64,000 nt of DNA, taken from Amphiscolops sp. MND2022. Its lineage: Eukaryota. The DNA lies in contig OZ076409.1 in NCBI GenBank assembly GCA_964187785.1, positions 54,748,001 through 54,812,000 of the forward strand, written 5' to 3'. A program made the position numbers and the translations under genes. The notes below the pieces were generated by a model. It was not told the DNA's origin. It saw only the letters and a list, made by a program, of their open reading frames with translations, and made no database searches. Below are positions 1 through 45,850 of the stretch, piece by piece (within the stretch, counting starts at the first letter, position 1; each line of letters begins with the position of its first letter).

Positions 1-1959
1 TCCTGTTGGGTATTCTTTCTCTTCTGACTTCGGGTTGTAGACATTTCGATGAAGAAAAGATTTTTGAATGAGTTGAATTTCTTTTCAAAGTTTCAACGGA
101 GTTGAATTAGGATAGAGTTGAGACAAGCAAGTTTAAGCAATTGATTATCGCAAAAGGCAAAAGACTGAGTCCCTTAATCATCAAATTTCACTGTATTTAT
201 ACCCTCCCAGCATCATTTGATCACGGCTATAATCCCTAATTTTCCTCGAACAATTAGTCATTTCCTGTATTTTCGATGAAAAAATCGCGAAGTTCCCAAA
301 TTTGCGTCAACATTTCGTCAATTTTTAAGACACGACAATTTCAAGCTAGCATTAGTCATCAAACATGATCATATCATTTCATCCCGGCGTCCTTTTGCTT
401 CCTCCCAACCAGGAAGTAGATATTACTTCAGTCTGTCAAACCGGAAATGTTTCCCTGTTTTCCTGCTTTGGTTCGCGGGAAATTGACGCTGAGATGACGC
501 TGACGTGAACAACAAATACCTGATTTTGAATTTCAGCATGAACGAAAATATGACTAACTCTCAAATTATGGTTACTTAAACGATGCTAGGAACGATATTT
601 TTATGAATTTGGACTCTTTCTTTTCGTTAGGGACGAAATTAAGATCACTGTACCAAATATATTCATCATCAACAAACTTGACATGTCGCGACAAGTACGA
701 CAAGCTCTACAAAATTAACAACAACATTTGTTAAGTAGCAACGGCAACGCAACGCATTTAATGAACAGCAACGATGAATTAATATGGAAAATATAATCAC
801 TATCATGTGAGTACAAAATTGTGAAGTATATGATAATACACTTCCAGTACAAAATATACTTTAGTTGAAAGTATAAACTGTGATTTTCTGATTATTTTAC
901 TATGAATTCCCATAGTGGAAAAATGGCTTATGTAAGGGAAATTCCATGTTGTTGAAAAAATGCAAGACTATTAGTTAACGTGGATTTGAACTATCCTATA
1001 TGTGTCAAATCTACTTTAAGTTGGAACCTTAAGTTATAAGAATACCGCCTCTTTATTTATTTTACGAACTGAAATAGCCTGCATTCGTTTTCTTTTAGCA
1101 TAATAACAACCTTAGTGCGATGAAACCTTAACTGATCTTGTAAATTCATCTATTTTGTTCAATCTCATAAACTTGTCAAAGTCATGTTGACGAGTTTTCT
1201 TGGCAGAATTTAAGCTTCATAAACTTGTCAACGTCATGTTGACGAGTATTTTAGAAATGAGTCTCTCGCTAGCTGCCGGAGCAGTGACGTCACAGTGGCG
1301 GTAAATTGGAATGATTTCTAGCAATGCTATTAGTATAGGCGGATAATTGGAATGATTTTCTGGTACGCTTATGCGAGGCAGTGACGTCAATTGGTATACC
1401 TTCAACTTGTCTGCTTCTTACTGACGACAAATATACATGTATTCTTATTTCTTTCGCCGCTTTGTTTACTCAGCGCAGTATTGACGTCCTAAACCACTTT
1501 AATTGCTGTTCAAAGAGTAATTAAGCTGCCTTTCTAAGAAAAGGCTTAGATCATTCGGTGTGCCATCTCAGTGTGTTTTCTATTTTAGATCTGATTGATG
1601 TTCTTTTGGGAGATGATTTTGACTACGTTTTCATTTAGATTAGACTATGATTTCCTTGTTTTTAAAACGTATTTTAATTTAGTTTTCAGGTGGCGAATGT
1701 TGCTATTTTGACGTGGCGAGTACGTCTTACCGGAAATGCGTGTAATCATTCTGGCTCATTTCATTCTCTGTTTTCATTTTCATTCAAAGTTTGCGCAACG
1801 TAGATGTATTTTTACATTTCTAGTCGCAGTTTATTTCAAAGTTAAAGTTTTAGAGTTACCAGTTAAAATAAGATTTTGGGAATCTCAGATTGCCTCCATG
1901 TCCTCTCCCGATCTTCAATCGTCGGCAACCACAAGCCAGACCGGGAGCGGGCTGTGACA
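1..1959 (-). repeat. 3' LTR of element A (partial)
   Basis: Matches the 5' LTR up to ...gggctgtgaca (1959 vs 15126), where the flanks diverge. Scattered substitutions and a ~20-bp indel near 805/13955. Confidence 0.95.
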
Positions 1960-2562
1960 GGGCCGCTCTTGTGAGAAGATTGACGCTGCCCGGGGCTCTG
2001 AGTTGTGAGGCGATAGTCGGGGTAGCGGTGACCGTCTGTATTCTCTTTTCCAAGTCGTTTAAAGGGCTTGCTTGTAAGAAATTTATCTTCTTTGGCGTTC
2101 CCGGCGGGGTGTTGAAGTAAGAAGAAGCGTTTTCCTGGTGCACCTTTCCGAGATATTCTGCTACCTTACTGCTCGTTATCGACTCTTTATCGTTTGCCGA
2201 GGTTTCAACAACGAATATGTCAGATGACAAGCTTTCATCTGGGCTCTCTGGGGAGTCGCTATTGCTATTTCTTCGGGACTTTCCGAATGCGGATACTGAC
2301 CCGATTCCACTGTTTCGAAACTCGTGTAGGGTTCACTGAAATTCATTCTTTTGCATTCAGATTCCAGGGAGTCTTGAGAAAGGTCGAGAAATTCTTCTTC
2401 ATCTGCAGTAGCTTCCGCTGACGAGTTCAGTATTTCGACAATTATTCTGGGGTACTCTTTGTTGGCCCTAGGTAACGGGGTAGAAGCTCTTGTGTTCTCG
2501 CCTTCCTCTTCGCTTGACGATGAAATGTCGATCAACTCGTACAGATCTAGTAGATTATTCAT
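1856..2562 (-). pseudogene. Sense accessory ORF of element A (acidic/Ser-rich, SIM-like motifs), frameshifted, ends inside the 3' LTR
   Basis: ORFs 2176-2562 and 1856-2230 overlap. Same position as the intact B ORF 30278-31063, and it crosses the LTR edge at the same (L/V)SQ codon phase. Confidence 0.65.
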
Positions 2563-16565: not shown

Positions 16566-18503
16566 TGTCGCAGGCTGCCGCCTGTGATGGTACAAGGATC
16601 ACTACTACCGCAGAAGGACAAGAAATAGCGGCCGGAACTCTACCAATATATTAGAGGTAAACATTAAAAACACAAACTTTGCTATTATTTTTTAGTCTAC
16701 AAGTTGTACCTGTTATCGTTGCGAATTTTACACTTAGTATATAGTTTGTTGATATTAGTCCGTTAATGCCAACATTTGAAAATTCAGATGCTGTATTGAT
16801 AATTGTAAGAGCTAGAAGTGCAGTACGAACACGCTGTTATAGCAATAGATAGGCAGCTAGAAAGCGTAAAGGAAACGAGTTCAAGTGAACGTAACTCCAG
16901 TTCCGGAGACGTCACTTGAGCTCAACCTGTTAGCCAATCATATTCATCCATTTGAGTAATAGTAGTGCTGTATTTAATTAATGGCCGGTTTAGGCCATAT
17001 GCCGGAATTTCACCTTTATCTATTGGCGCTTTAGTCAAACGGCCGGTTCCGGCCTTAATGTTCAGATGAAAGAATGTTAATGCGAGCACTGTTGTGTTTC
17101 GTTTAATAGTAGTCTAATCACGTTGCTGTACTAATTAAACGTTCATCTTAGCTAATTGGCGCTTTATTTTATCCATTCCAATATTAGGCCGAATAAGGCC
17201 ATTTGCCTGACTTCTATCCTCCGTTGCTGTGACCAATTGGACAGTGGCCGGTTGAGGCCCCTTTTCAATACTATTATTCAGATGCTAATTACAATCATTT
17301 AGTGTACTTTATATGTCATGTATAATTACAAGTACGTCGTAAAGACTCATGTAACTCTTGAAATTAATTGGTGTAATCAATACCAATGTATGATGTTGCT
17401 ACCAATATTAGTCCAAAGGACATGTCTGGCCATATTTACTAGTTGACACGTGGAATCTGTGTGCATATTATATAAAGGAAAATATGTGCTGTTACATGTA
17501 ACATTGCTGTATACAAGTTGATCTAGCCTGCTAACGGGGCACGTGCCGACACGAGATTGTCAGCATTCCTGAAATATTAGCGGCGTAAACATTTTAATCG
17601 ATGCTATTTGATGTACCGTGTGCCTTTTGAATACTTGTTATAGTTGTCAAAACAGGAATTTGATCGGCCGCGTGACCTTACGATCACGATTCGGCGGCAC
17701 TTTGATGCTTGCATAGTCGAGTTAAGTCAGGTGCTTTCGGAATGTGTTTGTAACATTTTTTGGCTGTTTGCATCATGTTTATCCCGCCCAAGGAAGTATA
17801 TATAGGGGCAACTTCCTTTGGGTGGACACAATTTTGTTTTGCTCCTGATATTCAGTTGATAACACTTTCTCGTTAACAACCATCAATCCTGTTTTCCGGT
17901 TTTAATAATTTAACTATTCAACCCGGTTTAGTCTTAATGCCTACTACTAGAAAACAAAAGAAGGCAAGGAAATCTAGAGGATTAGAGATTCTCTCTGATA
18001 TTGAAAACCTTGACATAATGTTAGGTGAAAATCACTTCAAGGACATGAGGAGAGACGGAAGCCTCGATGGAACTTCCATTAAAGGCAGGAAAGTGTTACA
18101 AGCAATAACTTAGAAAATGAGGAAATGAATCTCCATTCTGATCACAGGAATCCCGAAACTGGGACTAGTGCCGGTTACGACCGAACCACAGCGAGTATAG
18201 ATTCTCAAGCTGAGATCAATAAGTTATCGTGTCAACTAAACTCTAGAATATCTAGGGAGATGGATGAGATGATGAACAGCGTTAGTTCTCAAATCCAGAG
18301 AGCCATAAGTGATGCCATCAATAACCAAGTTTTGCCACAAATTCAAAACGTTATTATGGCCGGTTCAGGACAAGAGACTAGAAGGGGATGGGAGAGATCC
18401 GACGAGAGACCGGAAAGTTATTCCGAAGTTCAGTATAACGCGAAAACTAGAACTACCTTCAATAATGAACACGGTGATAGAATACAGCGTAATGTTCATG
18501 ACA
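16566..18503 (+). repeat. 5' LTR of element B (1938 bp)
   Basis: TGTCGC...ATGACA termini; matches 30975-32911; TATA candidate at 17797-17804. Confidence 0.96.
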
Positions 18504-18515
18504 TGGTGACAGGAG
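18504..18515 (+). other. Primer-binding site TGGTGACAGGAG
   Basis: Directly follows the LTR-terminal CA and is translated within gag as (M)VTG. Confidence 0.88.
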
Positions 18516-19622: not shown

Positions 19623-19632
19623 AAAAAACTAA
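19623..19632 (+). other. Putative -1 ribosomal frameshift site A AAA AAC followed by the gag stop
   Basis: Canonical X XXY YYZ heptamer at the gag/pol junction. The same AAAAAAC-TAG occurs in element C (~51098-51107, minus). Confidence 0.75.
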
Positions 19633-22600
19633 CTTCGCCACGACTCCAATATAACGAATTAATATCTGTCCGACAATACATCAGATCGGACCCTCCAACG
19701 ATACAATCCTTCCACCAATACAATCAGCAATTGATGGGCTATCCCTCTGTTGTCTGGCAGCAGCAGATGGAAAAAGCTACCATCATCACCTACAATAACA
19801 CCCATTTATTCCAGAAACCAATTCCTGTTTGGGACCCTGATTACACCACTACCTTCACCACCCGCTTCAGGCACATTCCCCTAATCGATGATTACAACCC
19901 AACATACATCGATCCAGACTACGGCAGAGATCCCTATTGGGACACCGAGCTTTACAACCAAGATTCACTGCAATTTCAATATGTCCTGGACGATTTTGAC
20001 TATTATAACAGAACAGTCCACGAGAACCCCCCAATTACCCATAACAAGAAAACACGAGCACTAATCGAAAACTGGCAAATGAATGATGGTACAAACCACC
20101 CAGTGTTCCCAAACCCATTGGGGACCGAGAACCCTGAAAACAGTGTTGAATCCACGCCACAATCATTATTAGATGAAAAACAATTCCAAAATGTACTCAT
20201 CACCAGAGATGGTGAACCAGACTGTATACCCCTGTCAACCAACATCAACCTCAAATGCAAGAAACGCATGCTTTAATTCCCAATGGACTTTGGGGAATTG
20301 ACCATTGATGGATTAATAGACACTGGAGCACTGTCCAGTGCAATCCCTGAAATGGACTTCCGGAAAATCCGCCTTCTATCTCCACAATCTGTTATCCGAG
20401 AAGGTCCGCCTCCGAACTTCCAAATCATGGTCGCTAATGGGCAACTGGAAACTCCTAAGAGTACCATCGAGCTCAAATTCGAAGTTGGTGACATTGAGTT
20501 CCATGAAATCTTTATAGTAATGGAACATTTGACAGGACCAATCATTGGACTAATGTTCCTTCAGAGAAATCATACAGTGCTGGACATGAGACAAGGGATA
20601 CTGAATTTCCCGTTCTTTTCAATGCAGCTCAAAACGGCTGACCATAAGTATTCAAATGTATTAGAACCAATTCTCAACCCTATTGAGATAACAATTCCAC
20701 CAAATGATAAAGTCCTAATTAGGACCAATTCCCTACTCTACCCCGAGAATGCTGTCACTGGAATTTTGCAACCGGGCGACCTTCTACACGAAGAAGGCGA
20801 CATCACATTTTGCCCAGCTTTAGTAACTCTGAATGACGGCAATATATTAATACCAGTGAACAATTTCACAGACCACCCTTATAAACTCAAAAAGGGACTT
20901 CATATTGCCAATTTCTCTGTCATGACACCAGAACAGATGAAGTATGTCAAATTGGTAGATCCGGCATCAACCTGGCACCTGTTGCAGAATGACCAGGAGC
21001 AAGCAGCCCATTACGTCAGCAGTCTCATCAAGACCAATAGAAACCCGCAAAACTCTGAAAATTATTGGATCCCAACTCCAGAAAATCCTGGAAATCCTGA
21101 GGAACACACACCTATACAAAAACGAATCCTACGCGAGTTACAGGCCCTACAGGACCTGGAGACACTCGATCCCACTACAAATGCAGAATCGCGTGCAAAA
21201 TTCTTAGAAAACTTTGACTGGAAAGATTCCACCCTTACTCCTGAAGAGAAGGAGAAAATTGAGGAATTGTTAGTGGAATTCCATGACATCTTTGCACGAC
21301 ACCGATTTGATATAGGCATGAATGAAGAATTCAAGGTGAAACTGACGCCTAAAGACGATTCCCCAGCCTATAGTCAAAGCCTTCCAGCTCCTATCAACTT
21401 GAAGGAGGACATCCTAGTTGAATTAGCCATGTTACATAAATATGGCATAATAACCACACTGCCATTCTCGAAATATGCAAGTCCAATATTCGCACAGAAG
21501 AAACCGAACGGGAAACTCCGACTCTTGGTTGACTTGAGAAAAATCAACAACCTCATCTCAGATGATTATATCAACAACAATCATCTCGTCAGTACACTAG
21601 TTGATGCAGCCCAACACTTGGCAGGCAAAAAACTGTTCTGTAAATTAGACTGTTCGCAGGCATACCACTGCCTACCAATGGCCGACCAACGATCAATCGA
21701 AATGTTGGCTTTCAATTTTGCCAGTCGCACATTCGCTTACCGACGCTTGGCACAAGGCCTTAGTCGGTCACTATCCGCATTCTCGAGTTTCATGAGGGAA
21801 TACCTCGACAAAGTCATTAAAGCGGATCAGTGTGCCCAGTATGTGGACGATATCGGCATCGCAGCCAATGATGTCGACCACCTCATGACGAACCTGAGAG
21901 CCACGTTCAAATGCATTCAGGAAGCAGGCCTTAAGTTGACAATGCACAAATGTCACTTCGGTGCAAAAGAAATTGTTTTCTCGGACGGACTATTACCCCA
22001 CAAGGCGTCAAACCTCAGAAACAGAACGTGCAAAACTTTCTGGAAAAGACCAAATTCCCGAAGTCGAAAAAGGCTTTACAGCGCTATTTGGGATTCCTAA
22101 ACTATTACAGGAATTATGTCCCAAGACTCTCCGAACGCCTTGCTCCATTCTACAAGATGCTCAAAAGTGACGAAAAGGTCCTAGTATCGAAAGAATTAGT
22201 CCAACAATTCGAAGAAATCAATAGAGCACTAGACAAATGTTGCGACCTGGCCCTACAACAACCCATTCCGAACAAACAAATAGCACTAATGACTGATGCA
22301 AGTTTTGGTGCAGCCGGGTACGCGGTCCTAATTGAAGACGACCCAAGTCAGAAATTTACATCACTCAGAAAATCGTATGCACCGGTCGCATATGGATCAA
22401 AAATTTTCACCCCAGCACAGATCAAGATGTCAATTTATGCCAAGGAATTCCTTGCAATTTATTTTGCATTCAAAGAATTCGGACATATCTTCTGGGGTGC
22501 GCCGAAACCGGTCATCATCCTTACGGACAACAAAGCCGTCACGAGATTTTTCCAAACGAAAATAATACCCCAGCCCTGTGGAACGCGTGTGATTATTTCA

Positions 22601-24836
22601 TTCAGTTCAATTTTGTCATAGCACACATCCCAGGGGCACAAAATACAGCCGCCGACTATTTGTCCCGATTGGAAGCAGATCCAAAGGACAAATTGGTGAT
22701 GAAAATTCGTGAAGATGTACAAACACTACCAATCGAAATCAACGTCCAATCCGCAGGTGTGACGCAAGAAGAACAAATCTTCTACACCAATGACGACGAC
22801 GAGACAGAGGAACAGTATTGGGCAAGAAAAGAAGCAATTAGGAAAAATCCAACAACTGATGAGCCCACTGTTACTATACAAACTCTATCAACAACTCTGG
22901 TCAAGCAACACCCCGATATACAAGTCCGATTGAGGAGAACGAACCAGATCATTATCGAGCAATCCAAGGATGCGGTACTACAACAATTGAAAGCAAAACT
23001 GCTTCATGAAGAGTATTCAGAAAATCTACTACACCAGGATGCCCGATATAGACATTACGCAAACAATCTGGAACGAATTGTACTAAAGGACGAAATCCTG
23101 ACAAGGCAATATTTCGATGAAACAGGGAATGTTAAATACCATCAAATTCTACTCCCGCAACATTTACTCCAGGAATTGCTCCAATCCCTTCACGGGACAG
23201 CGCATAAACATCCTGGGACTTCAAAAATGCTGCAGGAAATTCGACAGAGGTATTACTACCCTAACATGGCTAAACACGTCAAAAAGTGGGTAGAAGGGTG
23301 CGAACAATGTGCCAGAGACAAAAGAGTCCCTAACGCAACGATCACACCTGAGCTGCTCAACTTGCCCGAATGGGACCTCGGACCTGAAGACGCCATGCAA
23401 ATAGACCTATTGCCGAATCTTCCCCCAAGTGATGGGTATGAAAACGTCTTAACAGCAATTGATGTATTCTCCCGATATTTGTTCGCCTATCCCCTTACGG
23501 ACACATCAGCGATCAATGTAGCAAAAGCGCTCATTGACATCATGACTAAACACTCATATCTACCAACGACTCTTATCACTGATAAAGGTACTGCATTTAC
23601 TTCTACAATTATTGGGGAGGTTACGCAGATTTTGGGCATCACACTCAAATGTGCAACGACAAAACACCCGCAGACAATTGGGAAATTGGAGCGAACCCAT
23701 GCCTCATTGAAAACAAATCTCAAAATGGCATGTGGGGAATATCGCCGACAGTGGCACAAATACTTGCCATTAGCAGTACTGAATCATAATACTAGTTATC
23801 ACGCCAGCATCGGTTGTGAACCGACGAGAGTATTCCATGGAAGAATTCCATTTAATATCTTGGATCACAAACTTGGAAATAATCCAAATGAGCAGATCAA
23901 CCCCACAACCGAATTTGCTGAAGAAATCCAAAACCGGACGAAAATCCTAATTGACAAAACGAAGCAGAACATTATGCAGTCGTATATCAAGTACAAAGAA
24001 TATTACGACCGCAAAGCAAAAGCTGCTCCATTGAAGGAGAATGATTACTGTTTCGTCTTACAGCCGAAAGCGGATCATCAGGGATCAAAAATTCCATTCC
24101 GCGATTACCGTTGGGTTGGACCATTTGTAGTCCAAAAAGTTTTGCCAAATGAAAACTATATAGTACGACGGATCAATACGAACAAAACTCAAATTTTGCA
24201 TCGCATTCGCCTTAAGAAGTTCGTCCCCAATCAACCGCTTGAAGATAATTTCCGAGAACAACGTCTGCAGCCAGACGAAGAAATTGTCATTCCGCAAGAT
24301 GACCTATACGTCATAGCGTGGGAAACAGATTTTGGCGAGCAGCTAGGTACACGAGACAACGAGCCTATTCCGACTAGCGTGCCGAATGGCGAACAACCGA
24401 ATGCGGCACAACCGAATACAAGTGACGCACACGAGAATGAAGTGGATTATGTAATCACGAGTGATGAATCAAATCTTGCCGATCGTGCGTCGCATAACCG
24501 GAATGAACGATTAATTGATGACGTCACTACAAGAAATGAAGCTAGTGAACAGTCTAGAAATGAAGAACCTGATTGGCCGAATCCGGCCATTTCCCCAAAA
24601 AGCCATGAAAAATCTTTGCCGGATACGGCAGACAGCCTACAAGACAAAGAAATTTTACCCGATGAAAATTTTAGAACTGAAATCGATGCACAAAATTCTC
24701 CGAAAAGGGGGATGATATTATCGTGCCCGAAATATCTGAAAACGATGCTAGAAATGAAAGTCTGAGCCTTAGAGGAGGGAAATATAACCTCAGACCTAAC
24801 CCTAACCCAAACTACTCAGAAGACTTCAGATACTAA
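19633..24836 (+). pseudogene. pol: pol of element B (PR-RT-RNaseH-IN), a few disruptions
   Basis: LIDTGA; QYVDDIG; MTDASF/LTDNK; LHGTAHKHPG..CEQC; QIDLL/TDKG/LERTH; C-terminus KYNLRPNPNPNYSEDFRY*. Confidence 0.95.
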
Positions 24837-25066
24837 GGATTGAATTTTCCCGGAAATGGGAGTTCTTTTCTTTTATCTTTGTTTTAAGCCCCTCTGAGAA
24901 TTTCTTTGAATAAATACTGGGGCATTTCAAAGGATCCCATACAAAAAGAGAATAAATATGGGATCAAGGCAACGAAGAAACAAAATCAAGAGCAAATGAG
25001 AAAACAAAACAATGAAAGAAATGAACAAAGTTTACAGTCTGAAAGTACATAAATACATATGTACAT

Positions 25067-28000
25067 TTAGTCTTTAGAGGACCCTTGAACGGCTTTCTTG
25101 GATGCAGACGAAATTGTAGAACTGCTGCTACCTGCTCGCTTCCTCTGCTTCTTGGAAGGCACCTTTATAGCTGAATCATCAGGGATGGACGAGGCAGTAT
25201 CCTTTTCTATCCGGACAGAACGAGTAGAAGGAACAGCAGTAACGGCCTTATAGGAAGTGAGAAGACTCTTGAGATCTTAGACCTACCAAACTCATCCACA
25301 AGGGTCCACGGATCGTAGTCAGCAGAGAAAGCAGAACGCTCGGAAGAGGAACTGAGAACTGAGAACTTCTCCAAATTGACATCCGAGCAGCAATGGGAAA
25401 TGGAATTGGGCACACAGGAAAGGTAACTCTGGCAAGGCACCACTAGATCGGCAAACGGCCCTGACACCCCGTTGTGTCAACACTCCCGAACAGTACTGGG
25501 GGATATTGGGGGCTAACACTAGTCAGACACAAGCAGCAGAGTTTGAACAGATAGAACAAGTGCTCATGAGTTTGGAAAAACTCAAGCCCCATTAAAAAGT
25601 CTATAAGATCGACGGAATTCTCCATCAGATCGAAATCTGGAGGATAGTTGACTCGGAGGTAGTCCAACAGGGCCAGATATTCGTCTCGACAACTGTTCTC
25701 GTTGGCGCTAGTGACCCATGATCGAAGCTGGAAAGTAGAATATAGCACATCGAAGTGCCGGAGCCCGACCTCAGAAGGCCTTTTGAAAAGCACGAAGGGA
25801 TCAAAAGCAGCCAACCCCTTTATCACTTCAGAGCTCAGACCAGCTTGACTAAGGACTTGTTTGACTAGATATTGAATGAATTGCAACGCCTCTTTGACAA
25901 AGCTGCTGGTCGTTTCTGCAGCCGTCTTCTCGATACGGCCTTCTCCGATTTCTTGTTCAGGTGTGTGACTTCTGCACTCTGTTTACTAGCTGTAGCTATC
26001 CGGTTTGTGAGACGGTGCCGGATAAGGAAGTCTTCCTCACTCATGAATTTGCCCTCGCTCACCTTAAACCCGAGAAGGAGGAACCACGAGTTCTCGAGGG
26101 GAATGATTTCTGGCAAATAACATCGGGCGCACAGTTTTGAAACAAAGCGGCAAACCTCCCCACAGAGGAAGAACGACGCATCACGGCGGCCCTGCAGATT
26201 GATGGCGAAACTGGTAACGTCTGAAATACAACAGTCGTGATTATGAGAGGAATAGGATATACAAACGAGACAATGTTGATAGTGATTCAACAACTCAAGG
26301 ACCTAAATTATCGGAACGACGTCTTAGTGCACTGACGTGGAATGAAACCGTATACTCACAATCGCTAATTATACGTTGGAAGAATTCCAATTTAGCGACG
26401 AAGAAGAAGTCACAGATGATGGACCACTCGAAGCTTTGGACCTGATTGTGGACTCCTTGCATTCCTTGGTGAGGGGTGTGCGTAGTCAAGTACTGTCTGA
26501 TTGCCTTCCAATTCTTCACAAGTTCTCGGCAAAGACTGGGGAGGCTTGACAAATCTAGTTTTCAGGTGTCGATGGCCTTAAATGAACCAAATTGTCTCTC
26601 AACTGCACCTACCTTCAAACCTCTAACTACATGAGTGAACTCAATATACTTACTCTTCCCAGATCAGGAGATTCCAGAACCCAGTCCTCACCAGTAGCAG
26701 CTCCCAATGAAACGATCAGGCACTTTAGGACAGAGAAAAAGTCGATCCGTCCAAACACGCTGTAGGTGGGCTTGTGCATCATCTTCTGAAGCTGCAGCTG
26801 CTCAAAACGAAAGCAACTCTGTACTGCTCGGGGAAAGAACTCATTGTGATCTATGGTTTGGATCAACTCTACCGGACATCCCGAACAGGCGACGATATCG
26901 GCTTTGGTTGAAACCACAAATAGTAGTCTGGATATCGAACCCAAGTCTCCAGTCAGATCAGCGGAGGGAAGCCCACATCGGCACACAAAGACGCGACAAA
27001 GAGAATCGCCTTTCCAGAACTTGATAGACATGAGCCTGTTCACGCCCACATTCTCAAATTCGATAGCGAAGCATTGGGTGGTAGCAATTTGCTCTGCTAA
27101 TTCACTCATGGCACAATTGAAAATGTGTTGGATTATGGTCTAAAGAAGAAAAAGACAATTATGAAATGTGTAGGGAATCTATACCCTCCCTGAGTAAATG
27201 TTAGCCTGAAAGGGAACCTACCGAAATTCGTTCTTCCCCCAGTCAAAGTCGCAGTAACTGGTTTGATAGTTCGTCAGAGATCCTATCTGAGCCCATAGTC
27301 TGCGGAGTACTCCAAGATCACCGTGAGTTTGCACGAAGTCTCCAATGAGGTGTATTTGTGTCTTGGCCCTCGACGCAGGAGTGACGAGTGTGGTTGACGT
27401 CCCTTTCACGAAGTCGTCGTAGAATGGGAAGCGTTCTCCGATGTCTATTAGTTCGACGTGTATAAATTTGGGGAGTTCTTTCGCCAGCTCAATCTTGGTG
27501 AGGATCTTGCCGTTCCGCCCTCTGACCCGATGCTGCACTTTCCCAGTCACTGGATCAACGCTTTTGAGGTGTTCATAGCGCCGCCTTTGATCACGTCTGA
27601 GGTGTTTCTCAGTTCTGTGGTGACGCAGGATCTCCAGTGTACCCTTGGTCTTCACAGAAATATTCTTCTTACATACATGGCACCACACCATATAAGGATT
27701 GTGAAGGGGATCAGCTGGCCCGGAGATGAACGATCGGGTCCAGCCAATTTTGGAGAAGAATTCCTCCTTCATGGGAATGCCCCGTGTATGGCCGCGCCGT
27801 TTCTTCTTGGGCAATTTGCCTGAACTCGAAACTAGAGGTTGTGCTGGGGCCGTCTGGGTACGTCATTCGGAGAGCGTGGCGTCGAGACTGGATTGATCAG
27901 TGGACTCAAAACCTGCTTGGGTAGGGTCAGCTCGAGAAGGTGGAACGCGGCTGAAAGGTTCCTTGAAAGCCTGTGAGATGACTGCCATCTCACCAGAACT

Positions 28001-29227
28001 GTCAGTTTCGTTGAAAGATTCTAACCCTCTACTTTCTTGGCCAGCACTGGATCCTTCAGAGGTGTCAGTCCCTGATCCAGAACAGTATTCAGCCCGCGAA
28101 CTATCTTCCGAATCACTTTGCAGCCCTGGGCCGGGAGTTTGAGCCCTTGGTCGGATCTTGAAGTGGTCAGTTCGGGCACTGGAAGTGACGGGGGCCCCCC
28201 TAACCGCTCCGATTACCATCTGCTCCATGGTGGAGTAGGACATCTTCAAGGTCTCGTCTGTAAGGACCCTTAGGAGATGATAGATTTGTGGCTCCGTGAA
28301 CGCCACAGTTCTATGACCGAGCGGGAAGGTGATAGTGCTGGCATCATCATCGAAATACTGTTTCAAAACGGCCCTACTACGGCCGGAAAGCTCCCTGATC
28401 TTGGGGTCCTGAGCTGCTGAAGTGGAAGGACGCATGGAATCAGGAATTGCAGCGAAAGTATCAGTTGATGACCCTTCTCCTGCTGTGTCTGCTACGTTAC
28501 CTATTGGCAGGTAGGCGTACAATTGAGGAGCACTAGCCTGGCTAGATGTGTCACCGGCTTCTTCGGTTCCAGTCTCATCGCCCAACCACCTGACTTTTGG
28601 TGTTCCTGTTGGCAGCTTGGGGACATCACATAGGGAAGAGCTTTCGTCCGTTTCAACCTGGAGAAATGAGGCTGCGGACATTTCGGCAGGAGTCACGTTA
28701 GTGGGCAACAATTCCGGTAATATAGTCCTCGAGGAAGGAGCAATCGTTAGTCCAGTCTCTAACTGAGTCAAATTGAGCTCGTCGGTCTCACCGGCTACGC
28801 CTGGGGTAGGGGTACTAGTACGAAAGAGCGGCGTAGTAACCTGTGCCTCGATCCCCGTGGAAGAAGGACCCTCAGTTATACCTCTCCCGGTCTCTTGTTC
28901 TCCTCTCTCAGGGTTCTCCGCAGTATGTCCCTCTGATTGCTGTTGGGCCTGTTCGAGGAGCTGAAGCTTTTCGTCGGCATAAGATGTTACGTCGACGTTG
29001 CTGTCTGTACTGCTGGGAGACCTTGGTGGCTTTATTGGAGGAAAAGGAGGAGGAGACAATTGTGATCCACGGACGGTGGAGGACGTACCCACAGAAACAA
29101 TCGTTTGTGTATGTTGGTCGAGAATGTCCGCTGCAGAGTTGGTTTGTGTTTGCGGTTCGTCTCCTGGCTGGTTTGCTAAACAAAAGGAGATGAAATTTGG
29201 CGGTGAGCTTCCTTGGAAAAAATCCAT
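25067..29227 (-). pseudogene. Antisense 4-exon gene of element B: BED-finger, inactivated hAT-transposase-like protein (~1290 aa reconstructed)
   Basis: Exons 29227-27222, 27139-26654, 26576-26360, 26220-25067. Donors GTAGGT/GTAAGT/GTGAGT. Finger WCHVCKKNISV..GTLEILRHHRTEKH. Collinear with C 40523-44447. Premature stops at 27863 and ~26563. Confidence 0.8.
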
Positions 29228-30277
29228 TTTACCGCATTAGAAAACTTCCGGAAGTGTTTGAAAATCTGAACGAAACGTGTTATCACGCGTTTACTAATGG
29301 AAACAGGAAGCATATTGTGAACGGATTTAACCCTGATCAAGTTAGATTTAGTTCAAAAATAAAACAAACCAACCTTCAGACGAAGACATTCTGGGGCAAG
29401 ACTGATTGTAGGGAATGAGTCCTTGTTCGGCTGTAATGGATAAGGGAACTTGGCCGAGTCCGGCTGAAGAAGGAGATCCGGGATATTCCAAAGAGAAGAG
29501 CTGACGGAAGAAGAGCTGGACGTACAAGGATGAATCTCAGTTGGAAGAATACAAATAAAAGAAACAAATGTAGAGTAATCAGAAAAGGAATTGGATTGGA
29601 ATTTTAATGTAAAAGAATTGAAGAGTTGGAGTTCGTGGCTGAAGAATATTACCAGACTAATATTATGGATTATCTACATATTTATTCTGTACATGGAGTC
29701 TGCCAGCGAAGTGTACAAAGAACTTTATTATTTACAGCTTATTTAGTTAGAGGCCGGTTATGGCCGTTTACCCTGTTTTGTTTTGCCGTTTTGTCCAGTT
29801 ACCCTAGTTACCCTTAGCTAGAATTTTCGCCATCTTGAATTATTTGGATTTATTAGTTTCGCCATTTTTATTATTTAATTTTACAACTTATCGAAGCTTA
29901 ACGCTGATTGGCTGAAGTCATTTTGAAGGAATTCCGCGTCGCGTGTCGTTAATTGCTATCAGGCAAACCGTTAATTACCCACTTGAAACGGATGAAGATA
30001 ATATTTACAACTCAAGCGTCATTAACACCTCTCAGAGTGATGGTGCTGATGGGGGGTAAACACTGAGTTATCAAAGGATGCCGACTAATTATAAAATTCC
30101 ATTCAGGAATGTTTACGTCGGATCAGGGCGATTTACCGATAACTCGACCGCCAAAAACGAATTGCCGGGAAAAGGCCCGAGTCGACTAAATTTTTGAGTT
30201 GGTAAATTCATTCCACTTTGAAATCTCACTCAAGCTAGTTAACTTTCCCAATCAGCAAAATTGCCAAGAAACTCATA
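29228..30277. promoter_or_regulatory. Putative internal divergent promoter of element B
   Basis: Non-coding spacer between head-to-head ORFs, with sequence conserved in C 39495-40520. Contains ATTGG boxes and GGCC-N6-GGCC. Confidence 0.5.
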
Positions 30278-31063
30278 ATGCAGAGGTATAACCTATCTAA
30301 AAAGCTCTTTGATCTTGAAGAAGACTCAGAAAGTTCAGTAGATTCAGTTATCTACATCTCAAGTGACAGTGAGAATGAAGTCTCAAGTTCCTGGGACTCA
30401 GACTGGTCCACGGATACAGAAGAGATCATAGAAAGAATAGAACGAGAGGTGAAAGCTGCTCCAATCCCTATAGCGAGACGCGGGATGACGACGGAAAATT
30501 TAGAAGACGAGATGACAGCTGGACCAAGCAGTGCATGGCATGTTCCGCCCTCTACCCCTAAACTAGGATTCGAGTATTTTAACAAGGAAATGTGCTTGGC
30601 CCCATCGAAAAAACAAAGAAAATCAAAAGTCGAGCTCTGTGCAACTGTATTACCCGTTCTGGAGTCCCCACAGTCTCCTCCTGACCATGAAAGAGGACCG
30701 AGCATTGACACCCCTCTTGCGCAGTCAACCTCTGGATCTTTCTATGCGTCCTATCATGTGCAAAATATCGAGCCTTACCAGGATGTGAGCCAAAATTTGC
30801 ACACAGGCTGTATGGTATGTGGCAAGTCGAGAGATCAAATAAAAGCAGAAAAGGTGAACTGGTACATGCAAAGATCGACACCTAGCAGTGAGCCCGCTTA
30901 TATTACCGCCCTACGACGAGAGGCTTATGAAAATGGCTTGAACGCAGGAAGCTTACTTTTCCTAACACCCGCAGTGTCGCAGGCTGCCGCCTGTGATGGT
31001 ACAAGGATCACTACTACCGCAGAAGGACAAGAAATAGCGGCCGGAACTCTACCAATATATTAG
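30278..31063 (+). CDS. Sense accessory protein of element B (261 aa; acidic N-terminus, SIM-like VIYISSDSE, CxxC)
   Basis: Intact ATG ORF, clearly homologous to C 38700-39490. The last ~29 codons lie in the 3' LTR. No env-like transmembrane segment is visible. Confidence 0.8.
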   Translation: MQRYNLSKKLFDLEEDSESSVDSVIYISSDSENEVSSSWDSDWSTDTEEIIERIEREVKAAPIPIARRGMTTENLEDEMTAGPSSAWHVPPSTPKLGFEYFNKEMCLAPSKKQRKSKVELCATVLPVLESPQSPPDHERGPSIDTPLAQSTSGSFYASYHVQNIEPYQDVSQNLHTGCMVCGKSRDQIKAEKVNWYMQRSTPSSEPAYITALRREAYENGLNAGSLLFLTPAVSQAAACDGTRITTTAEGQEIAAGTLPIY

Positions 31064-32911
31064 AGGTAAACATTAAAAACACAAACTTTGCTATTATTTT
31101 TTAGTCTACAAGTTGTACCTGTTATCGTTGCGAATTTTACACTTAGTATATAGTTTGTTGATATTAGTCCGTTAATGCCAACATTTGAAAATTCAGATGC
31201 TGTATTGATAATTGTAAGAGCTAGAAGTGCAGTATGAACACGCTGTTATAGCAATAGATAGGCAGCTAGAAAGCGTAAAGGAAACGAGTTCAAGTGAACG
31301 TAACTCCAGTTCCGGAGACGTCACTTGAGCTCAACCTGTTAGCCAATCATATTCATCCATTTGAGTAATAGTAGTGCTGTATTTATTTAATGGCCGGTTT
31401 AGGCCATATGCCGGAATTTCACCTTTATCTATTGGCGCTTTAGTCAAACGGCCGGTTCCGGCCTTAATGTTCAGATGAAAGAATGTTAATGCGAGCACTG
31501 TTGTGTTTCGTTTAATAGTAGTCTAATCACGTTGCTGTACTAATTAAACGTTCATCTTAGCTAATTGGCGCTTTATTTTATCCATTCCAATATTAGGCCG
31601 AATAAGGCCATTTGCCTGACTTCTATTCTCCGTTGCTGTGACCAATTGGACAGTGGCCGGTTGAGGCCCCTTTTCAATACTATTATTCAGATGCTAATTA
31701 CAATCATTTAGTGTACTTTAAATGTCATGTATAATTACAAGTACGTCGTAAAGACTCATGTAACTCTTGAAATTAATTGGTGTAATCAATACCAATGTAT
31801 GATGTTGCTACCAATATTAGTCCAAAGGACATGTCTGGCCATATTTACTAGTTGACACGTGGAATCTGTGTGCATATTATATAAAGGAAAATATGTGCTG
31901 TTACATGTAACATTGCTGTATACAAGTTGATCTAGCCTGCTAACGGGGCACGTGCCGACACGAGATTGTCAGCATTCCTGAAATATTAGCGGCGTAAACA
32001 TTTTAATCGATGCTATTTGATGTACCGTGTGCCTTTTGAATACTTGTTATAGTTGTCAAAACAGGAATTTGATCGGCCGCGTGACCTTACGATCACGATT
32101 CGGCGGCACTTTGATGCTTGCATAGTCGAGTTAAGTCAGGTGCTTTCGGAATGTGTTTGTAACATTTTTTGGCTGTTTGCATCATGTTTATCCCGCCCAA
32201 GGAAGTATATAGGGGCAACTTCCTTTGGGTGGACACAATTTTGTTTTGCTCCTGATATTCAGTTAATAACACTTTCTCGTTAACAACCATCAATCCTGTT
32301 TTCCGGTTTTAATAATTTAACTTTTCAACCCGGTTTAGTCTTAATGCCTACTACTAGAAAACAAAAGAAGGCAAGGAAATCTAGAGGATTAGAGATTCTC
32401 TCTGATATTGAAAACCTTGACATAATGTTAGGTGAAAATCACTTCAATGACATGAGGAGAGACGAAAGCCTCGATGGAACTTCCATTAGAAGGCAGGAAA
32501 GTGTTACAAGCAATAACTTAGAAAATGAGGAAATGAATCTCCATTCTGATCACAGGAATCCCGAAACTGGGACTAGTGCCGGTTACGACCGAACCACAGC
32601 GAGTATAGATTCTCAAGCTGAGATCAATAAGTTATCGTGTGAACTAAACTCTAGAATATCTAGGGAGATGGATGAGATGATGAACAGCGTTAGTTCTCAA
32701 ATCCAGAGAGCCATAAGTGATGCCTTCAATAACCAAGTTTTGCCACAAACTCAAAACGTTATTATGGCCGGTTCAGGACAAGAGACTAGAAGGGGATGGG
32801 AGAGATCCGACGAGAGACCGGAAAGTTATTCCGAAGTTCAGTATAACGCGAAAACTAGAACTACCTTCAATAATGAACACGGTGATAGAATACAGCGTAA
32901 TGTTCATGACA
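30975..32911 (+). repeat. 3' LTR of element B (1937 bp)
   Basis: Matches the 5' LTR with few differences and is followed by TSD CTACA. Confidence 0.96.
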
Positions 32912-37085: not shown

Positions 37086-38788
37086 TGTCGTAAGCACGGA
37101 ATTCTGTATCTCTGTCACAAAGACGGTCATGATTTCGCTTACTTGTTAAGTTATCTCTGGAACATGCGTTCCGCAGAACTTCAGGATTAACTTCTGGTCT
37201 CTCAGACGGAACGTTCCATCTGTTTTGTGTGGAATGTCCCGATCCGGTATTTAAGGCAGATTGAATTTGGGGCAATATTTGACTACTAATTGCATCACTA
37301 ATTGCCCTTTGGATCTGGGTATTGACACTACTCATCATTTCATCCAATTCCCTAGGCAATCTCGAGTTCAGTACACTGGACAGTCTATTGATCTCTGCAC
37401 TAGAGTTACCTCCTGTTGAGTATTGGTCAAAATCGGCATTATTACTAGGATCAACATTTCTCGACTCTGAGTACCTGTTTTCCTCATTATTTTCGAATTC
37501 ATTTCCAAATGTATTTTCAGGCATCCCGGCCCGATTACTACTAAGACTTTCATCCCTTTCATTTCTATTAAAGTGGTTTTCTCCAAGCATGATATCTAGA
37601 TTCTCAGTAGATAGTAGGCATCAAGATAGAAAGTAGTAGGCATAGATAGAAAGTAGGCATCAAGAATTCAAAGGTTGAATATTGTATTGGTGGTCTAGGT
37701 ATGCAATCTATAAGAGCGTAACAAACTGAGTTTGAATAAGTGGAAAGATTATTGTGTCTTCCTCTCGGAAGGGGTGAATATTTATACTTCCAAGAGAATG
37801 ACATTCACATTCTTTAGATAATATTTCAACAATTTACAAATTCCTTAAAGTCACGAGACTAAGGCAAAACACTAATGGGTACATATCCGTCAGCGGTTAC
37901 CACTTCATCAAAGGGACTCAGGAATTTGTTCATGTTAGGGTCACGAGGAAATTACCTCCATTTTATAAATAGCAGCGTTGTTTATAGAAATAACACTTCA
38001 ATGGAATTTAGGTCGGCAACAAACATCAAACAAATAACAAATCACACCTATTCTAGGAATGTAAACTACTACATGTTAGCACGTGCCTACGTCTGTTGGC
38101 AAATACAATAAGTAGGTAGCTCCAATGCATGTAATATTACATGGAACAACATAGCCTAAACCGACCATTTGACATTAAGTCATTCATCATTAAAGGCTCA
38201 ATTAGTCCCAAAGACTTTTACTTGAGACATCACTGTTATTTAATGTTAATTGTATAGATTAACACCAAAAAAGTTCATGACCAACTCCAGATATTAATAT
38301 GTACTTACATGGCACTCAATCATGTAAATACCACAATCACAACAATTTATGTAGGGAATTAGAGAAACGGCCTATTTTGGCCATTTGATTAAAAGCAAGT
38401 ACTACAGCATAGAATGGGTGAGTGTGATTGACTAATAGAATGAGCTCAAGCGACGTCTCCAGAATAGGAGTTGCGTTCACTTGCACTCGTATCCGTTAAA
38501 CTGCATAGCAGCCTGTATTCACTTTCAATTGCTTTGAACAATTACTGCATTGCAAATTATTGCACTGCTTATTCAATTCGCCTCTTTGGATGTAATTATT
38601 AACAGACTAATAACAAACTTTTCATGATGAATTGGTATTATAACAACGTATAAAAGAAAACAAGTCAGTTTTTGTCTAAGTTTCTAATGGGACCTAACTT
38701 TAGTAAGTTGGTAGGGTACCGGGCACAAATTCCTGACCAACCGCAGACGTAGTCACTGTTGTGCCATCACAGGCTGCAGCCTGCGACA
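37086..38788 (-). repeat. 3' LTR of element C
   Basis: Minus strand TGTCGCAGGCTG...TACGACA (5-bp terminal inverted repeat). Contains the Gag-N ORF (MLGENHF..., 37590-37078). Boundaries inferred by homology to B. Confidence 0.82.
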
Positions 38789-39490
38789 CAGCGGGTGTAA
38801 TGAAAAGAAAGCAGCTTGCGGTGAGTTCATTCTCACACGCCTCCCTTCTGAGTCTTGTGACGATTCGGGCTCATTTTGTCGGGTGGATCGTCGCATGTAC
38901 CACTCCACTTTCTCGTTCTTGATTGCGTCCACTGAGCGACCGCAGATCATACAGCCAGTGTAAGGTATTTCACTGACGTTCTGGTAGGGCATCGTGTTCT
39001 GTACATGATAGGACGCAAGAAATTCCACTCGCGTTGTTTGGGTTTGTGGGGTATCCAATGAAGGCCCTTTCTCATGTTGCGGTAGTGACATGGGCGAATC
39101 AAGAACAGGCAAAAGCGTCTTGCATATTTCGATCTTAGACTTCCCATTTTGTCTGGGAGGAGCGTACCACATTTCCTTATCGAAGTATTTGAGCCCCAGT
39201 TTACTGGCTGGCGTGACTTCTTCGTGGAGATTACTTGTGCTTGGACCAGGTAACATGTCCCCTTGCTCCACTTCTACTGTCATGATCCTTCCTCCGATCA
39301 GCATGGGACTTGAGCAGACTTCTCCCTCAATGCGAGCAACTAGCTCTTCCGTATCGGTGGAACAGTCCGTTTCCCAGCCATCTGAAAGTTCGTCTTCGAT
39401 GCTTGAGAAGTATATAACTGATTTGTCTGAAGCCTCAGAACTGTTGTCATCTAGGTCGAAAAGTTTTCTCGCGAGTGTTGAATTTTTTTA
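38700..39490 (-). pseudogene. Sense accessory ORF of element C
   Basis: RKLFDL..SVIYFSS..WETDCSTDTEE, CMICGRS and GTLPTY* match B 30278-31063. Frameshifted near the 3' end. Confidence 0.8.
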
Positions 39491-40522
39491 GCTATCTTGT
39501 TTAATTGAGATGCGACTGAATAAAGTGAAGATTTAATTAGAATGAATTCGCTGATTTTCCGAACCAAGCCGAATCGGACCTTTTCCTGGCAATTTCAGTT
39601 CGGCGGTTAAAACTTCGGTTATTCTTTCTGAACCGACGTAACCTTTCCATAATGGAATTTCTAGCGGCATCAGTCGTTTGAAATTCAGAAGGCGACCCGC
39701 TTTCTCGCTTTCTCAAGTGGATGAGAGAAGAGTTTTTGAGTTGTTATCAACAAATAACTTCAACCTAAGTAGATAGTTAACGGGCCGCTTGAAAGTAATT
39801 AACGGCACGCGTCGTAGGCTTTCCTCAAAATGGCTTTAGCCAAACAGAACCGTCCATTGAAAGAATGAAAAATGAATAATTATTATGACGGAAATAATAA
39901 CTGAAATAATTCAAAATGGTGAAAATTCTAACTAGTTGGTAATAAGGACAATGGAACAAAACGGTAAAACGAAACAAGGCAAATGGCCATATCCGGCCTC
40001 CAACTAAGTAAACTGCAAAAAACGAGGAGTTCCTGTACATTTCACTGGCAGACTCCATTTACAATTTTAAATATGTAAATAAACACATAATATTAGTCTG
40101 GTAGTTTTTTCAGCCACGAACTCCAACTTTCAATTTTCTAATTGTTGTTTTACCTCATTTTAATTTCAATTCTGTTTATATTCTTAATTTGTATTCGTTA
40201 ATTTTGAATTCTTCTCGTATCCTTGGTTACGGCACCTGTCTGCATTTGTCTCCAACTTCGTCACTGACTTACTCTTCCTCAGAGTTCATCAGCTTTTCCC
40301 CTATCTTCAGCCGAACCCGGCCATTCTCCATTGCTGCATTAGCCAGATAAGAATCAAGTTTGGAGGCGCAAAGTCATCATTACAGATTGACTTCAAACAC
40401 AGGTTGGTCTGGATTTTTATGTTGAACTACATAACTTGATCGGGGCTAAATTTTGTTCAGAAAGAGCTTCCTGTTTCCGTCATTGAATGCGTGATACTTC
40501 CGGAAGATTTCCAATGCGGCAA

Positions 40523-43500
40523 ATGGACTCGTTTCAAGGAAGCATACCGCCAGATTTCATCTCTTCTTGTTTAGAGAGACCAGAACCCGAATGCCAAACA
40601 GCACCAAACCATTCTGAGTCTGCAGACCTTAACACTGTCACCGGACTAATTTCCGACGCACAGGCCCACGACAGAGTCACACCATCGCCCCAAAGTACCA
40701 GCAGTGAACCGGATGTCAACCTCTTTGCTGAGGACATAGTACGCCAAATAGAAATTTGACAACAGAAGACTGTTGCAGAACTCGATTCCACTTGCACCCC
40801 AAATTCAGAAGAAACTCCGCAGGTCGTACAACGGTCCAGCACCCCTGTTCCTGGTAGTTACGGGCAAGAAACCGAGGCTAGCCTCACCCAGTTAGAGACT
40901 GGACTCAGAGTTGCGACTTCTTCTCGCACTCTTCCCGAGCTTCTAACTACGGCTCTTTCGGATCATGAGGCAGCTGAATTGTCAAATTTACAGACTGAAG
41001 ACAACAACGTTTCTTCATTGTGTGAGTTTCCATCATTGCCTAATTTTGAGCCAAAAGTCCGATTCCTGACTGATATGAGCGAGAGTGAGAATACTGCGGA
41101 GGAAGGGAGCCTCGTCGATTGTCCTACCCTTTATGGCCGTAATCCTTTGAGATCTGAGTCAGGTACTGAAGCTGGTGATGAGACAGACATCAATTGCACT
41201 CCAACAATCCGCGACATGCCCTCTACTTCCTCGGGTTATGTCCTTGGGGACAATGTTCCTGATCTGTCCGGACGATGCAGGGCAATTCTGGAGAATTACT
41301 TCCAAGAATCTGACGCCTTCAATCTACCCCAGGGGCATCCAGTAGTTGCCTTCACTGAACCCCAAGTGTACCATTTGTTGAGAGTCCTGAATGATGAAAC
41401 ACTCAAAAAATTGTTCGACACCGTGGAACGTATGGTTATTGAAGCTGTGAAGGGGAAAACTTCAACAACCCCGTCTAGAACCTCCCACTTCCAGACCAAA
41501 AGGCGAGCACAAACCCCAGAGCGCTGGATTCATTCAGACTCCAAACAGGAAACGTCTGGGCACTCAGGTGCTGCCAGTGCATCTGGTTCCGAGGACTTGG
41601 GCGACACTTCATACGATGGAGAGACTGACAGCGCAACGGAGATGGCTTTGATCTCTAACACCTTCAAGCCAATGTCAGAAATCAATCAGGAACATCCAAC
41701 CACCGAGGAACCGAATCCCGAACAGGCTACTGAACACAGCAGTCAGGATGCAACCCTCCTGGAATTACAGCAGTCGGCAAGGAATGCAAAAACCCCAAGA
41801 CCCTCCATGGAGAAACGCTCAAAGGCGGTCAAGAGACCTAGTCGAAGAAAGGCACCTATGCGGGAGGAGTTTTTCTCCAAAATTCGGTGGACCAGTTCTT
41901 TCATTTCCGGTCCAGTTGACCCTATCCACAATCCACATATGGTCTGGTGCCATATGTGCAAGAAGAATTTTTCAATTCGAAACAGGGTCCCGTTGAGATT
42001 CTGCGCCACCATAGGACCGAGAAACATCTGAGAAGCGACCAGCGGTGGAGGTACGAGCACCTCAGGAGTACTGATCAGCCACCGGTAAGGTCCAACACCG
42101 CGTCCGGGGTCGAAATGGGAAGATTTTAATTAAATTAGAACTAGCGAAAGAACTTTCGAAATTTATCAACACGGAACTCATGGAAGTAGGGGAGAGATTC
42201 CTTTTCTACGACGACTTTATCCAAGGGCGGACCGTTGCCTTGATTACACCGGAGTCTCGGGCTCGGACCCAATTGAGGATTGTCGCTGAATTTCTCGAAA
42301 CTCAGAGCGATTTCTCTATCCTTCGAAATCTTTGGGCCAGATTAAGTACCTTAACTGATCACCACGCCAGCCTCTGCGTTTTTGATTGGGGCGAAGAACA
42401 CATGACGGTAAGATCTGATTTCTTGTTTAAATTCCTAATCTTGTTTACAGTGCCATGTTTGTGAATGGTTCGTGACACCTGATTGTTTCATTCCAGGCCA
42501 TCCGCCAGCACTTCTTTGATAGTGCTATGTCAGACATTGCCGAGCATGTTGCCGCAGAGCAGTGTTTCGTTTTGGAATTCGAGGAAAGAGGGCTTAATCG
42601 TTTCATGTCAGTTCGATTTTGGAAGGATCAGCACCTTTGCGAGTTGCCTGCCACAGGACTGACAGGTGATTTGGGATCACTGTCCCGGCTACTTTCCCTC
42701 ACTTCCACCAAAATAGACGTAGTCGCATGTTCTGGAGGCCCTGCTGACTTGATCCGGACGATTAATCAGTCTCCCAACTTCACGCGGAGTACACAAGCAG
42801 TTCGTTTCGAGCAGTTGGACTTGCCTCATTTATTGAATAAGATGAGTTACAGTGTCTTCGGGCACATAGAATTATTCTCTGTGTTGCGGGGGCTGTTAAT
42901 TTCGCTCGGCGGATCGCAAACAGAGGACTGGGTCTTGAGGAGTCCTGAACAGGCCAAAGTAAGTGTTCCCTCAATTCATCTCAATGAAATAGGGCAAACG
43001 TTAAGAGGAACTCCCTTTAGATCTTCACATCTTTGTGGCATTGACCATGTGTTTGTAGTCAACGGATTAATGGATTGATTTGCCCAATTGTAATATTTGT
43101 GAGACTTCAGGCCATCGCAAAATGCAAGTTGGATCTCTTGACATTGCCAGCCCTCTGTCAAGAGCTGATAGATGAATGGAAGTCTGTTACTTCATACCTA
43201 ACTCTACACGCCCCATACCAGCAAGGACAAGGAGTCAGAACCAGGGTAGGTAACCTCATTAGGAATACCATCTTTAGAATATAATATCACTCAGCAAGCA
43301 CTACCACGGATAATGTCACCCGTTAAGGCCGCCAGCTAAGGATCAGTGTATGTGTTTCAGGTGCAGAGTTTCGAATGGGGGCTCAAATGCGATGAGTTCT
43401 TCTTGGTCAAGTTAGAACTCTTCTACCATCTTGTCAGTGACTGCAAGTATAGGTTCATTTGTCCAGGGTTTCGTCCAAGACTCCCGTTAGGGCTATGTTT

Positions 43501-45665: not shown

Positions 45666-45850
45666 ATGTACATATGTATTTATGAATTTTCAAACTGTGA
45701 ACTTTGTCCATGTCTTTGCACTTTTCTGTATTTATTCATTTGTCTTTGTTACTTTTCGTTATTTCTGGTCCCATATTTATTTGTAAGGGCTCTTTGTTGT
45801 TATGCCTCAGTATCATGGTATGCATGAAGCCTGGAAAGAAAAGAGGGGCT
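43153..45850 (+). repeat. Tandem duplication inside element C (43153-44630 and 44631-45850)
   Basis: Near-identical sequence and duplicated ORFs (e.g. 44244-44447 vs 45462-45665). The second copy lacks ~255 bp. Confidence 0.92.

Follow-up and report, generated by a model that had tools for sequence, protein, structure and literature searches.

The regulatory genes of foamy viruses sit in a 3′ position and overlap U3. One of their products, Tas, is reported to activate the LTR as well as the internal promoter (PMC13220597). In Ty3/Gypsy retrotransposons, extra ORFs can lie downstream of pol, ahead of the 3′ LTR, as described for the TRP28 antisense ORFs of plant Retand elements (PMC11963269) and for the ORF3s of rotifer elements (PMC5408684). 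CERV of the C. elegans element Cer1 is reported to export genomic RNA (PMC10309623), and VANC, from the VANDAL DNA transposons of plants, is presented as an anti-silencing protein with a proposed origin from MAIN-like proteins, in a paper whose main text contains no occurrence of SUMO (PMC13547354). The viral transactivator IE2 of HCMV is described as binding SUMO through a CIVI core and CK2 serines, with affinity rising 8-fold (10.1101/655282), and PML, Daxx and PIAS1 are given as phospho-SIM proteins (PMC4276917). In the piRNA silencing of flies, SUMO–SIM contacts are described as bringing in SetDB1/Wde (10.1101/533091).

The ORF analysed here belongs to element B, one of three related LTR retrotransposons (A, B and C) within the window, that is, the whole 64-kb stretch of DNA under analysis. 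Compared with the extra ORFs of Retand and the rotifer elements, it lies on the sense strand, stands head-to-head with a second gene, runs into U3, carries a SIM-like motif and has a probable non-AUG start. Assignment to the Retand TRP28 type was rejected on account of the strand and the lack of a TRP28 match in Pfam, which returned no GDSL or DEDDy match for the accessory protein either. As with foamy virus tas and bet, an internal region would serve two putative regulatory genes, and here a DNA element is common to that region and the LTRs; unlike tas and bet, which are spliced from one transcript, the two genes diverge, and there is no sequence or fold match. The product resembles CERV in that both are small, novel accessory proteins encoded by LTR retrotransposons of animals, CERV being regulated by phosphorylation, but RNA export is the shown function of CERV, and the likeness does not extend to detected homology. 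With VANC it would share the proposed role of a transposon-encoded accessory factor against silencing. To IE2, PML, Daxx and PIAS1 the likeness is at motif level only, with no homology: a four-residue aliphatic core, then serines in an acidic tract, in predicted disorder. By analogy, the accessory gene may work as do the 3′ regulatory genes found in complex retroviruses and the accessory ORFs of Gypsy elements, while being a member of none of the groups tested. The literature searched, with subscription journals, Repbase and supplements outside the search, contained nothing on this ORF family.

The accessory gene and its carrier element

Element B spans 16566–32911, with LTRs that are 99.3% identical, TG...CA ends and the target-site duplication CTACA. 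Comparison of the LTRs and their termini places the 5′ LTR at 16566..18503 (+) and the 3′ LTR at 30975..32911 (+), the latter holding the last 29 codons of the accessory ORF and its stop. The element has the features of Ty3/Gypsy, namely LTRs with a target-site duplication and the order gag-like, protease, RT, RNase H and integrase. The gag-like frame opens within the LTR and crosses the LTR end and the primer-binding site (window 32344–32911 and 18083–18503). A polypurine tract before the 3′ LTR is not clear in A, B or C (1960–2020, 30945–30975 and 38780–38800, respectively), and over 28 loci purines make up a median of 0.47, and at most 0.73, of the 15 bases that precede the LTR; the boundary of B is nonetheless confirmed by its target-site duplication. 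Just before the LTR, distant families carry a short AGGGGGAG. The families are abundant and young, as seen in the LTR identity of B and in thousands of first-look candidates.

The accessory ORF runs from its first ATG to the stop at 30278..31063 (+) and encodes a protein of 261 aa (P0001). The earlier note had described it as intact in B with counterparts in C and A; the ORF of B is indeed present and intact, with VIYISSDSENE included, and it is the window's copies in C and A that are broken, intact A-type and C-type copies lying elsewhere in genome G000. Relatives of P0001 in this genome gave 147 matches at 66–100% identity among 146 scored candidates. Neutral evolution, a possibility raised at the outset, does not describe the ORF: among 14 subfamily representatives the median dN/dS is 0.092 (0.049–0.145) over the 29 unsaturated of 91 pairs, synonymous sites being saturated in 62, and pN/pS is 0.15 among 26 young copies. 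The coding frame alone is free of stops, the five alternative frames having 8–17 per sequence. Variable columns at codon positions 1, 2 and 3 number 144, 104 and 249 of 258 overall, and 11, 8 and 25 of 29 within the LTR part. The accessory ORF is a gene under purifying selection.

These data bear on a further explanation, in which the ORF is an env remnant or a frame that stays open only because the DNA of the LTR end is constrained. The ORF does occupy the env position, and the codons for VSQAAA, where the LTR starts, are under DNA-level constraint because they are fixed at synonymous sites. Yet amino acids are kept despite saturated synonymous sites, and C239-D240-G241 is protein-constrained because its synonymous sites vary freely inside the LTR. 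Further, the absence of a transmembrane helix, claimed beforehand, is borne out by hydropathy, with a maximum 19-residue Kyte–Doolittle mean of 1.18 and a polar, acidic N-terminus; a mean of 1.6 is reached by 3 of 92 homologous C-termini. With no transmembrane segment and no env family match in Pfam, the ORF is not env-like, as the earlier note had it, and this explanation is highly improbable.

The family reaches well beyond the near copies. A profile search recovered full-length relatives at 25–33% identity, and one of the relatives (P0232) has a best match of at most about 43% over its length among 140 scored in G000. Two contigs of a JGI metagenome carry relatives at 33% and 38% identity, and therefore the family probably occurs in other hosts too; a further metagenome locus (L142) was rejected as a relative, as it looks spurious with bacterial genes around it. 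RT segments are 90–91% identical between elements whose accessory domains are 29–36% identical to that of B, and the RT of the A family is 84% identical to that of B. The accessory protein and its relatives form an unnamed protein family, encoded by a large Ty3/Gypsy superfamily.

The only confidently predicted fold, in a model built with 92 sequences, is a CxxC followed by a two-helix hairpin at residues 177–224 (30806..30949, +). Near and distant groups alike conserve C121, H160, C178, C181 and C239, which are candidate zinc ligands. Of two motifs said to be common to B and C, CMxCG is near-invariant in its two cysteines and its glycine, and (K/R)KLF is found but confined to the near group. 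Pfam has no family for P0001, and for 18 homologues it gave just three weak matches, each in a single member. One of these is to the Rad50 zinc hook (PF04423; 1 of 18 members, E=0.023). In that hook, the CxxC caps a long antiparallel coiled coil; in the predicted hairpin both helices follow the CxxC, and the Rad50 hook was not among the fold matches. A sequence search of the PDB gave no match at E up to 1, the full-length model (pLDDT 51) no Foldseek match in the PDB, and the C-terminal model (pLDDT 67) no viral fold match at E 0.001, its best fold matches (Z 4.5) being generic hairpins. Matches to PiggyBac-related clusters in an atlas search (0.84 or lower) were treated as noise. For the folded part, the Pfam, PDB and fold searches gave no known match pointing to DNA or chromatin binding, although these negatives do not make the fold a new one.

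The protein is acidic (38 D+E against 24 K+R). At residues 129–134 (30662..30679, +) it has a [DE][ST]PxSP motif that also occurs in the non-homologous A-type protein; 85 of the 96 B-type proteins and 32 of the 37 A-type proteins have [ST]PxSP, against 2.3 and 1.2 expected from shuffles. Nuclear import remains putative because a basic [KR][KR]x[KR] patch occurs in only 24 of 71 homologues. SUMO-acceptor-like psi-K-x-E/D sites (55 of 96 B-type, 3 of 37 A-type proteins) were given no weight because of these frequencies and their position in a predicted helix. [APE]GPS, which we take to be a USP7-type motif, is present in only 35 of 71 homologues.

The N-terminal SIM-like motif

SIMs have an aliphatic core of the form V/I-x-V/I-V/I or V/I-V/I-x-V/I. 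A strict SIM-like pattern of our own was built from this consensus, with the acidic/Ser tract as part of the pattern. The motif of B, SVIYISSDSENE, occupies residues 23–34 (30344..30379, +) and consists of a hydrophobic core, VIYI, and an adjacent Ser/acidic tract, SSDSENE, as expected of a SIM on both counts. Residues 23–29 have the lowest pN/pS of 15 regions (0.08, with flanks at 0.41 and 0.33), and residues 19–44 are predicted to be disordered (pLDDT below 50 in a model with a 48-sequence alignment); the core is a conserved island inside a predicted disordered region. That such motifs exceed chance is supported by the window itself, where the strict pattern matches three times in 16,535 residues of frames of at least 100 aa: in the ORF of B, in that of A and in one frame of the opposite strand. 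It matches 4.5% of P0001 shuffles.

Conservation across families, one of the points on which the earlier note had wished its reading to be judged, is found. The motif occurs within residues 1–100 of 60 of 71 homologues in either orientation, where shuffles expect 4.2, and of 56 in forward orientation; the 71 are the non-redundant full-length homologues out of 96 selected, 25 having been left out as too short, and since the homologues are related, the 60 are not independent events. Those with the motif span down to about 25–30% identity. On most deep branches the aliphatic V/I-V/I-x-I/L is kept, with x exchanging freely, and the two metagenome relatives retain PIYLSSD-acidic. The motif persists between elements that share 90% identity in RT but only about 30% in the accessory protein. 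The strict pattern fails in 11 of the 71, namely five with partial cores (PIYLSS, SYISS, VIYFSS) and six from a decayed-core clade, which comprises 10 rows with an SH-aLRT of 100 in a quick tree whose near group was thinned to about one in three of its rows. About 20 residues downstream, this clade has an acid-first (D/S)DI(E/Q)(V/E)(I/L/F), the reversed shape of a SIM, which we read as motif turnover in one event.

Elements C and A were examined for the same feature. The ORF of C (38700..39510, −) lacks an in-frame start and has a frame shift near 38800. Its claimed clear homology to B is confirmed at 65% DNA identity over 1.8 kb; its motif, VIYFSSIEDE, is present as stated but fails the strict pattern, a close relative (L032) having VIYISSSEDE. 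The counterpart in A (1856..2562, −) is split into two frames, 2176–2562 and 1856–2332, passes the start of A's LTR (1959) in the codon phase of B and has an N-terminal SIM-like motif. It had been described as positional only, in keeping with an hhalign probability of 3.6% and an alignment limited to the SIM-like segment. The strict motif occurs in 32 of 37 A-type proteins (shuffles expect 2.8), and is nearly always the N-terminal one. Among the four cores named for A, LIDISSS is conserved and SIM-shaped, IIVEIL and FLDLS are variable, and (I/V)FVVE is conserved yet mostly outside the strict pattern. A multi-SIM reading of A is mostly unsupported, with one strict motif in 28 of the 37, two in four and none in five. 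The slot was either filled twice, in A and in B, or the two proteins diverged beyond detection; the motif would have been kept both ways. Within the LTR, the A-type C-terminus has a CxC...GRGHG motif in 30 of 37 (window 1856–2332), and TP(P/L)G(T/P/S) is found in 29 of 37.

The accessory protein probably binds SUMO through its N-terminal motif, as judged from sequence. Among named proteins, the SUMO1-like ones of Convolutriloba (82%) and Symsagittifera (79%) come closest to the host SUMO, which points to an acoel as the likely host; the SUMO gene of the host lies in two exons (L096:1590–2324), and a near-identical contiguous form exists (P0438). It is unlikely, though worth considering, that the conserved island is instead another short linear motif (kinase-docking, acidic activation or chaperone-mimic) of a SUMO-independent acidic transactivator or scaffold. 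The first 60 residues are rich in D/E (17) and S (13), and some lineages lose the first core residue while keeping Y(L/I)SS-acidic, which suggests that the SSD-acidic part may matter most. The retention of V/I-V/I-x-I/L across the deep branches speaks against it, as do the rise of a reversed motif where the core decays and the same shape in the unrelated A-type protein. SUMO-targeted ubiquitin ligases combine SIMs with a RING, which has eight zinc ligands. Such a ligase was rejected, the protein having only five conserved Cys/His, no RING match and a helical hairpin model.

Translation start and intergenic region

Directly before the first ATG, a conserved in-frame K-I-A-K-K-L-I segment (30257..30277, +) contains an ATT at 30260. 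Translation likely starts at this ATT, six codons before the ATG; the downstream ATG in B may give a second protein form. In most families, K-I-A-K-K lies 6, 10 or 13 codons ahead of the first ATG, and a frame-blind search found it at 65 of 71 loci, 60 in frame and five off frame, the broken C copy of the window being one of the five. The metagenome locus L140 keeps it in frame. The candidate start codon at the 65 loci is ATT (35), ATA (23) or ATC (7), never ATG, though the pattern allowed it. A purine stands at −3, a position outside the search pattern, in all 65; the G at +4 is fixed by the pattern itself. Where the first ATG is 10 or 13 codons off (8 loci each), codons +6 to +9 are stop-free with pN/pS of 0.40 and 0.54; codons upstream of the segment in these same two groups contain stops and have values of 0.71 and 1.10. 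An ATG occurs within the preceding 80 bases at only 2 of 65 loci.

Splicing from a coding exon further upstream onto KIAKK was considered and rejected. The conserved upstream (C/T/A)AGT(C/T) occurs in all three phases (25, 14 and 21 loci, with none in 5; n=65), an in-frame stop often lies between it and KIAKK, and at 11 in-frame loci the stretch from the last stop to the codon lacks any AG (L084, a mis-anchored row, was left out of these). The (C/T/A)AGT(C/T) could itself act as a splice acceptor or else mark a start site; in a related acoel, 30% of genes are reported to be trans-spliced (PMC9911081). Annotation based on ATG would miss a conserved non-AUG start of this probable kind.

The ATG of the accessory ORF is 1,050 bp from that of the antisense gene, whose first open frame (27863..29227, −) stands head-to-head with it, a layout shared by distant families; its product has a weak zinc-ribbon-like match in Pfam. 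A pattern search found divergent starts spaced 1.02–1.38 kb apart in 14 of 17 B-type loci, and three other B-type families, as well as the A family, likewise have the antisense gene and pol upstream of the ORF. In one copy (L057), LTR-like sequence with a palindrome series replaces the antisense start upstream of the ORF; this is possibly a rearranged or tandem copy. The antisense region of element C has internal direct duplications at window 43153–45847.

The 1.05-kb intergenic region between the divergent starts (29228..30256) contains conserved non-coding blocks and is likely regulatory. Close to the antisense start (29245–29342), CTTCCGGAAG, GGAAACAGGAAG and TGATCA are conserved; close to the sense start (29829–30214), GCCATCTT, CTGATTGGCTG, ACCCACTTGA, CATTCC (twice), CCGCCAAAA and CCGGGAAAA. 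Presumably these motifs resemble ETS, YY1, CCAAT, NK, TEAD and E2F sites, and therefore suggest a bidirectional promoter. A 14-bp palindrome-like element, GGCC-N6-GGCC, lies in the region at 29752..29765 (+) and recurs four times in the 3′ LTR (31392..31668, +; at 31392, 31450, 31596 and 31655), the same four being found in the 5′ LTR (16983–17259). The window has 12 matches against 0.04 expected, and 13 of 14 near-group loci have the intergenic copy near −525 (or −587) from the ATG. The element cannot be a universal target because distant B-type loci carry it only patchily and A-type loci lack it.

In the middle of the region, at 29627–29710, lies a further conserved non-coding block with a GAGTCTGCCAG core that seems recognisable even in distant families. 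It was rejected as a third ORF, its frames being broken by indels between families, and is possibly an RNA or priming element. As an RNA element it could serve Rev- or CERV-like export of unspliced genomic RNA by the accessory protein, the SIM-like motif merely localising the protein. Such a role would fit the conserved SPxSP sites and the precedent of Cer1 in C. elegans, described as having a small phospho-regulated accessory protein that does so (PMC10309623). We hold it to be rather unlikely: the accessory protein is acidic, its homologue alignments lack a conserved Arg-rich tract, and CERV did not appear among the Pfam, PDB or atlas results.

A possible role at the SUMO step of silencing

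Our preferred reading, to which we give an even chance, is of a two-gene cassette in which the accessory protein would be a low-abundance, phosphorylation-tuned SUMO binder on the element's own chromatin. The protein likely acts in the nucleus and would keep the element's promoters active. A short AUG-free leader and a near-cognate AUU, AUA or AUC start would make it scarce, and phosphorylation by host kinases at the serines that follow the hydrophobic core would tighten SUMO binding, as in cytomegalovirus IE2. It may then bind chromatin factors that carry SUMO at the element, and there compete with SIM-bearing silencing factors of the SetDB1/Windei type or divert them. The Cys/His hairpin domain could bring it to the element, or else the co-encoded antisense protein could do so, possibly at GGCC-N6-GGCC sites. 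Partnership with the antisense protein, as suggested in the earlier note, is putative, its sole basis being the conserved head-to-head layout, and the link between SUMO and silencing in this host is taken over from Drosophila and mammals.

The same SIM evidence applies to a protein of opposite effect, a SUMO-binding brake that would oppose the antisense protein by recruiting SUMO-dependent repression for copy-number control or latency. A weak start codon would be apt for a regulator whose dose matters, and foamy virus Bet is reported to suppress the internal promoter that Tas activates (PMC13220597). The abundance and youth of the families, however, fit a pro-element factor at least as well, and we regard the brake as improbable. 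For the cassette, a more specific form resembling complex retroviruses is tentatively proposed, in which a tamed transposase would target the DNA and a non-AUG-initiated SUMO reader would disarm the SUMO-dependent silencing of the host, with two unrelated SIM-first proteins having taken one slot; this is possible, though doubtful.

New here are an unnamed protein family, a probable conserved non-AUG start and a palindrome-like element common to the LTRs and the intergenic region. In the literature searched, no transposon-encoded SUMO-pathway antagonist in animals was found; if the cassette reading is true, the accessory protein would be one. A conserved SIM-like protein encoded by the element bears on the question of whether retrotransposons in animals counter silencing at its SUMO-dependent step. 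Acoel genomes are described as dominated by LTR retrotransposons (PMC9911081), and anti-silencing at the SUMO step might help explain the success of these elements in the acoel lineage.
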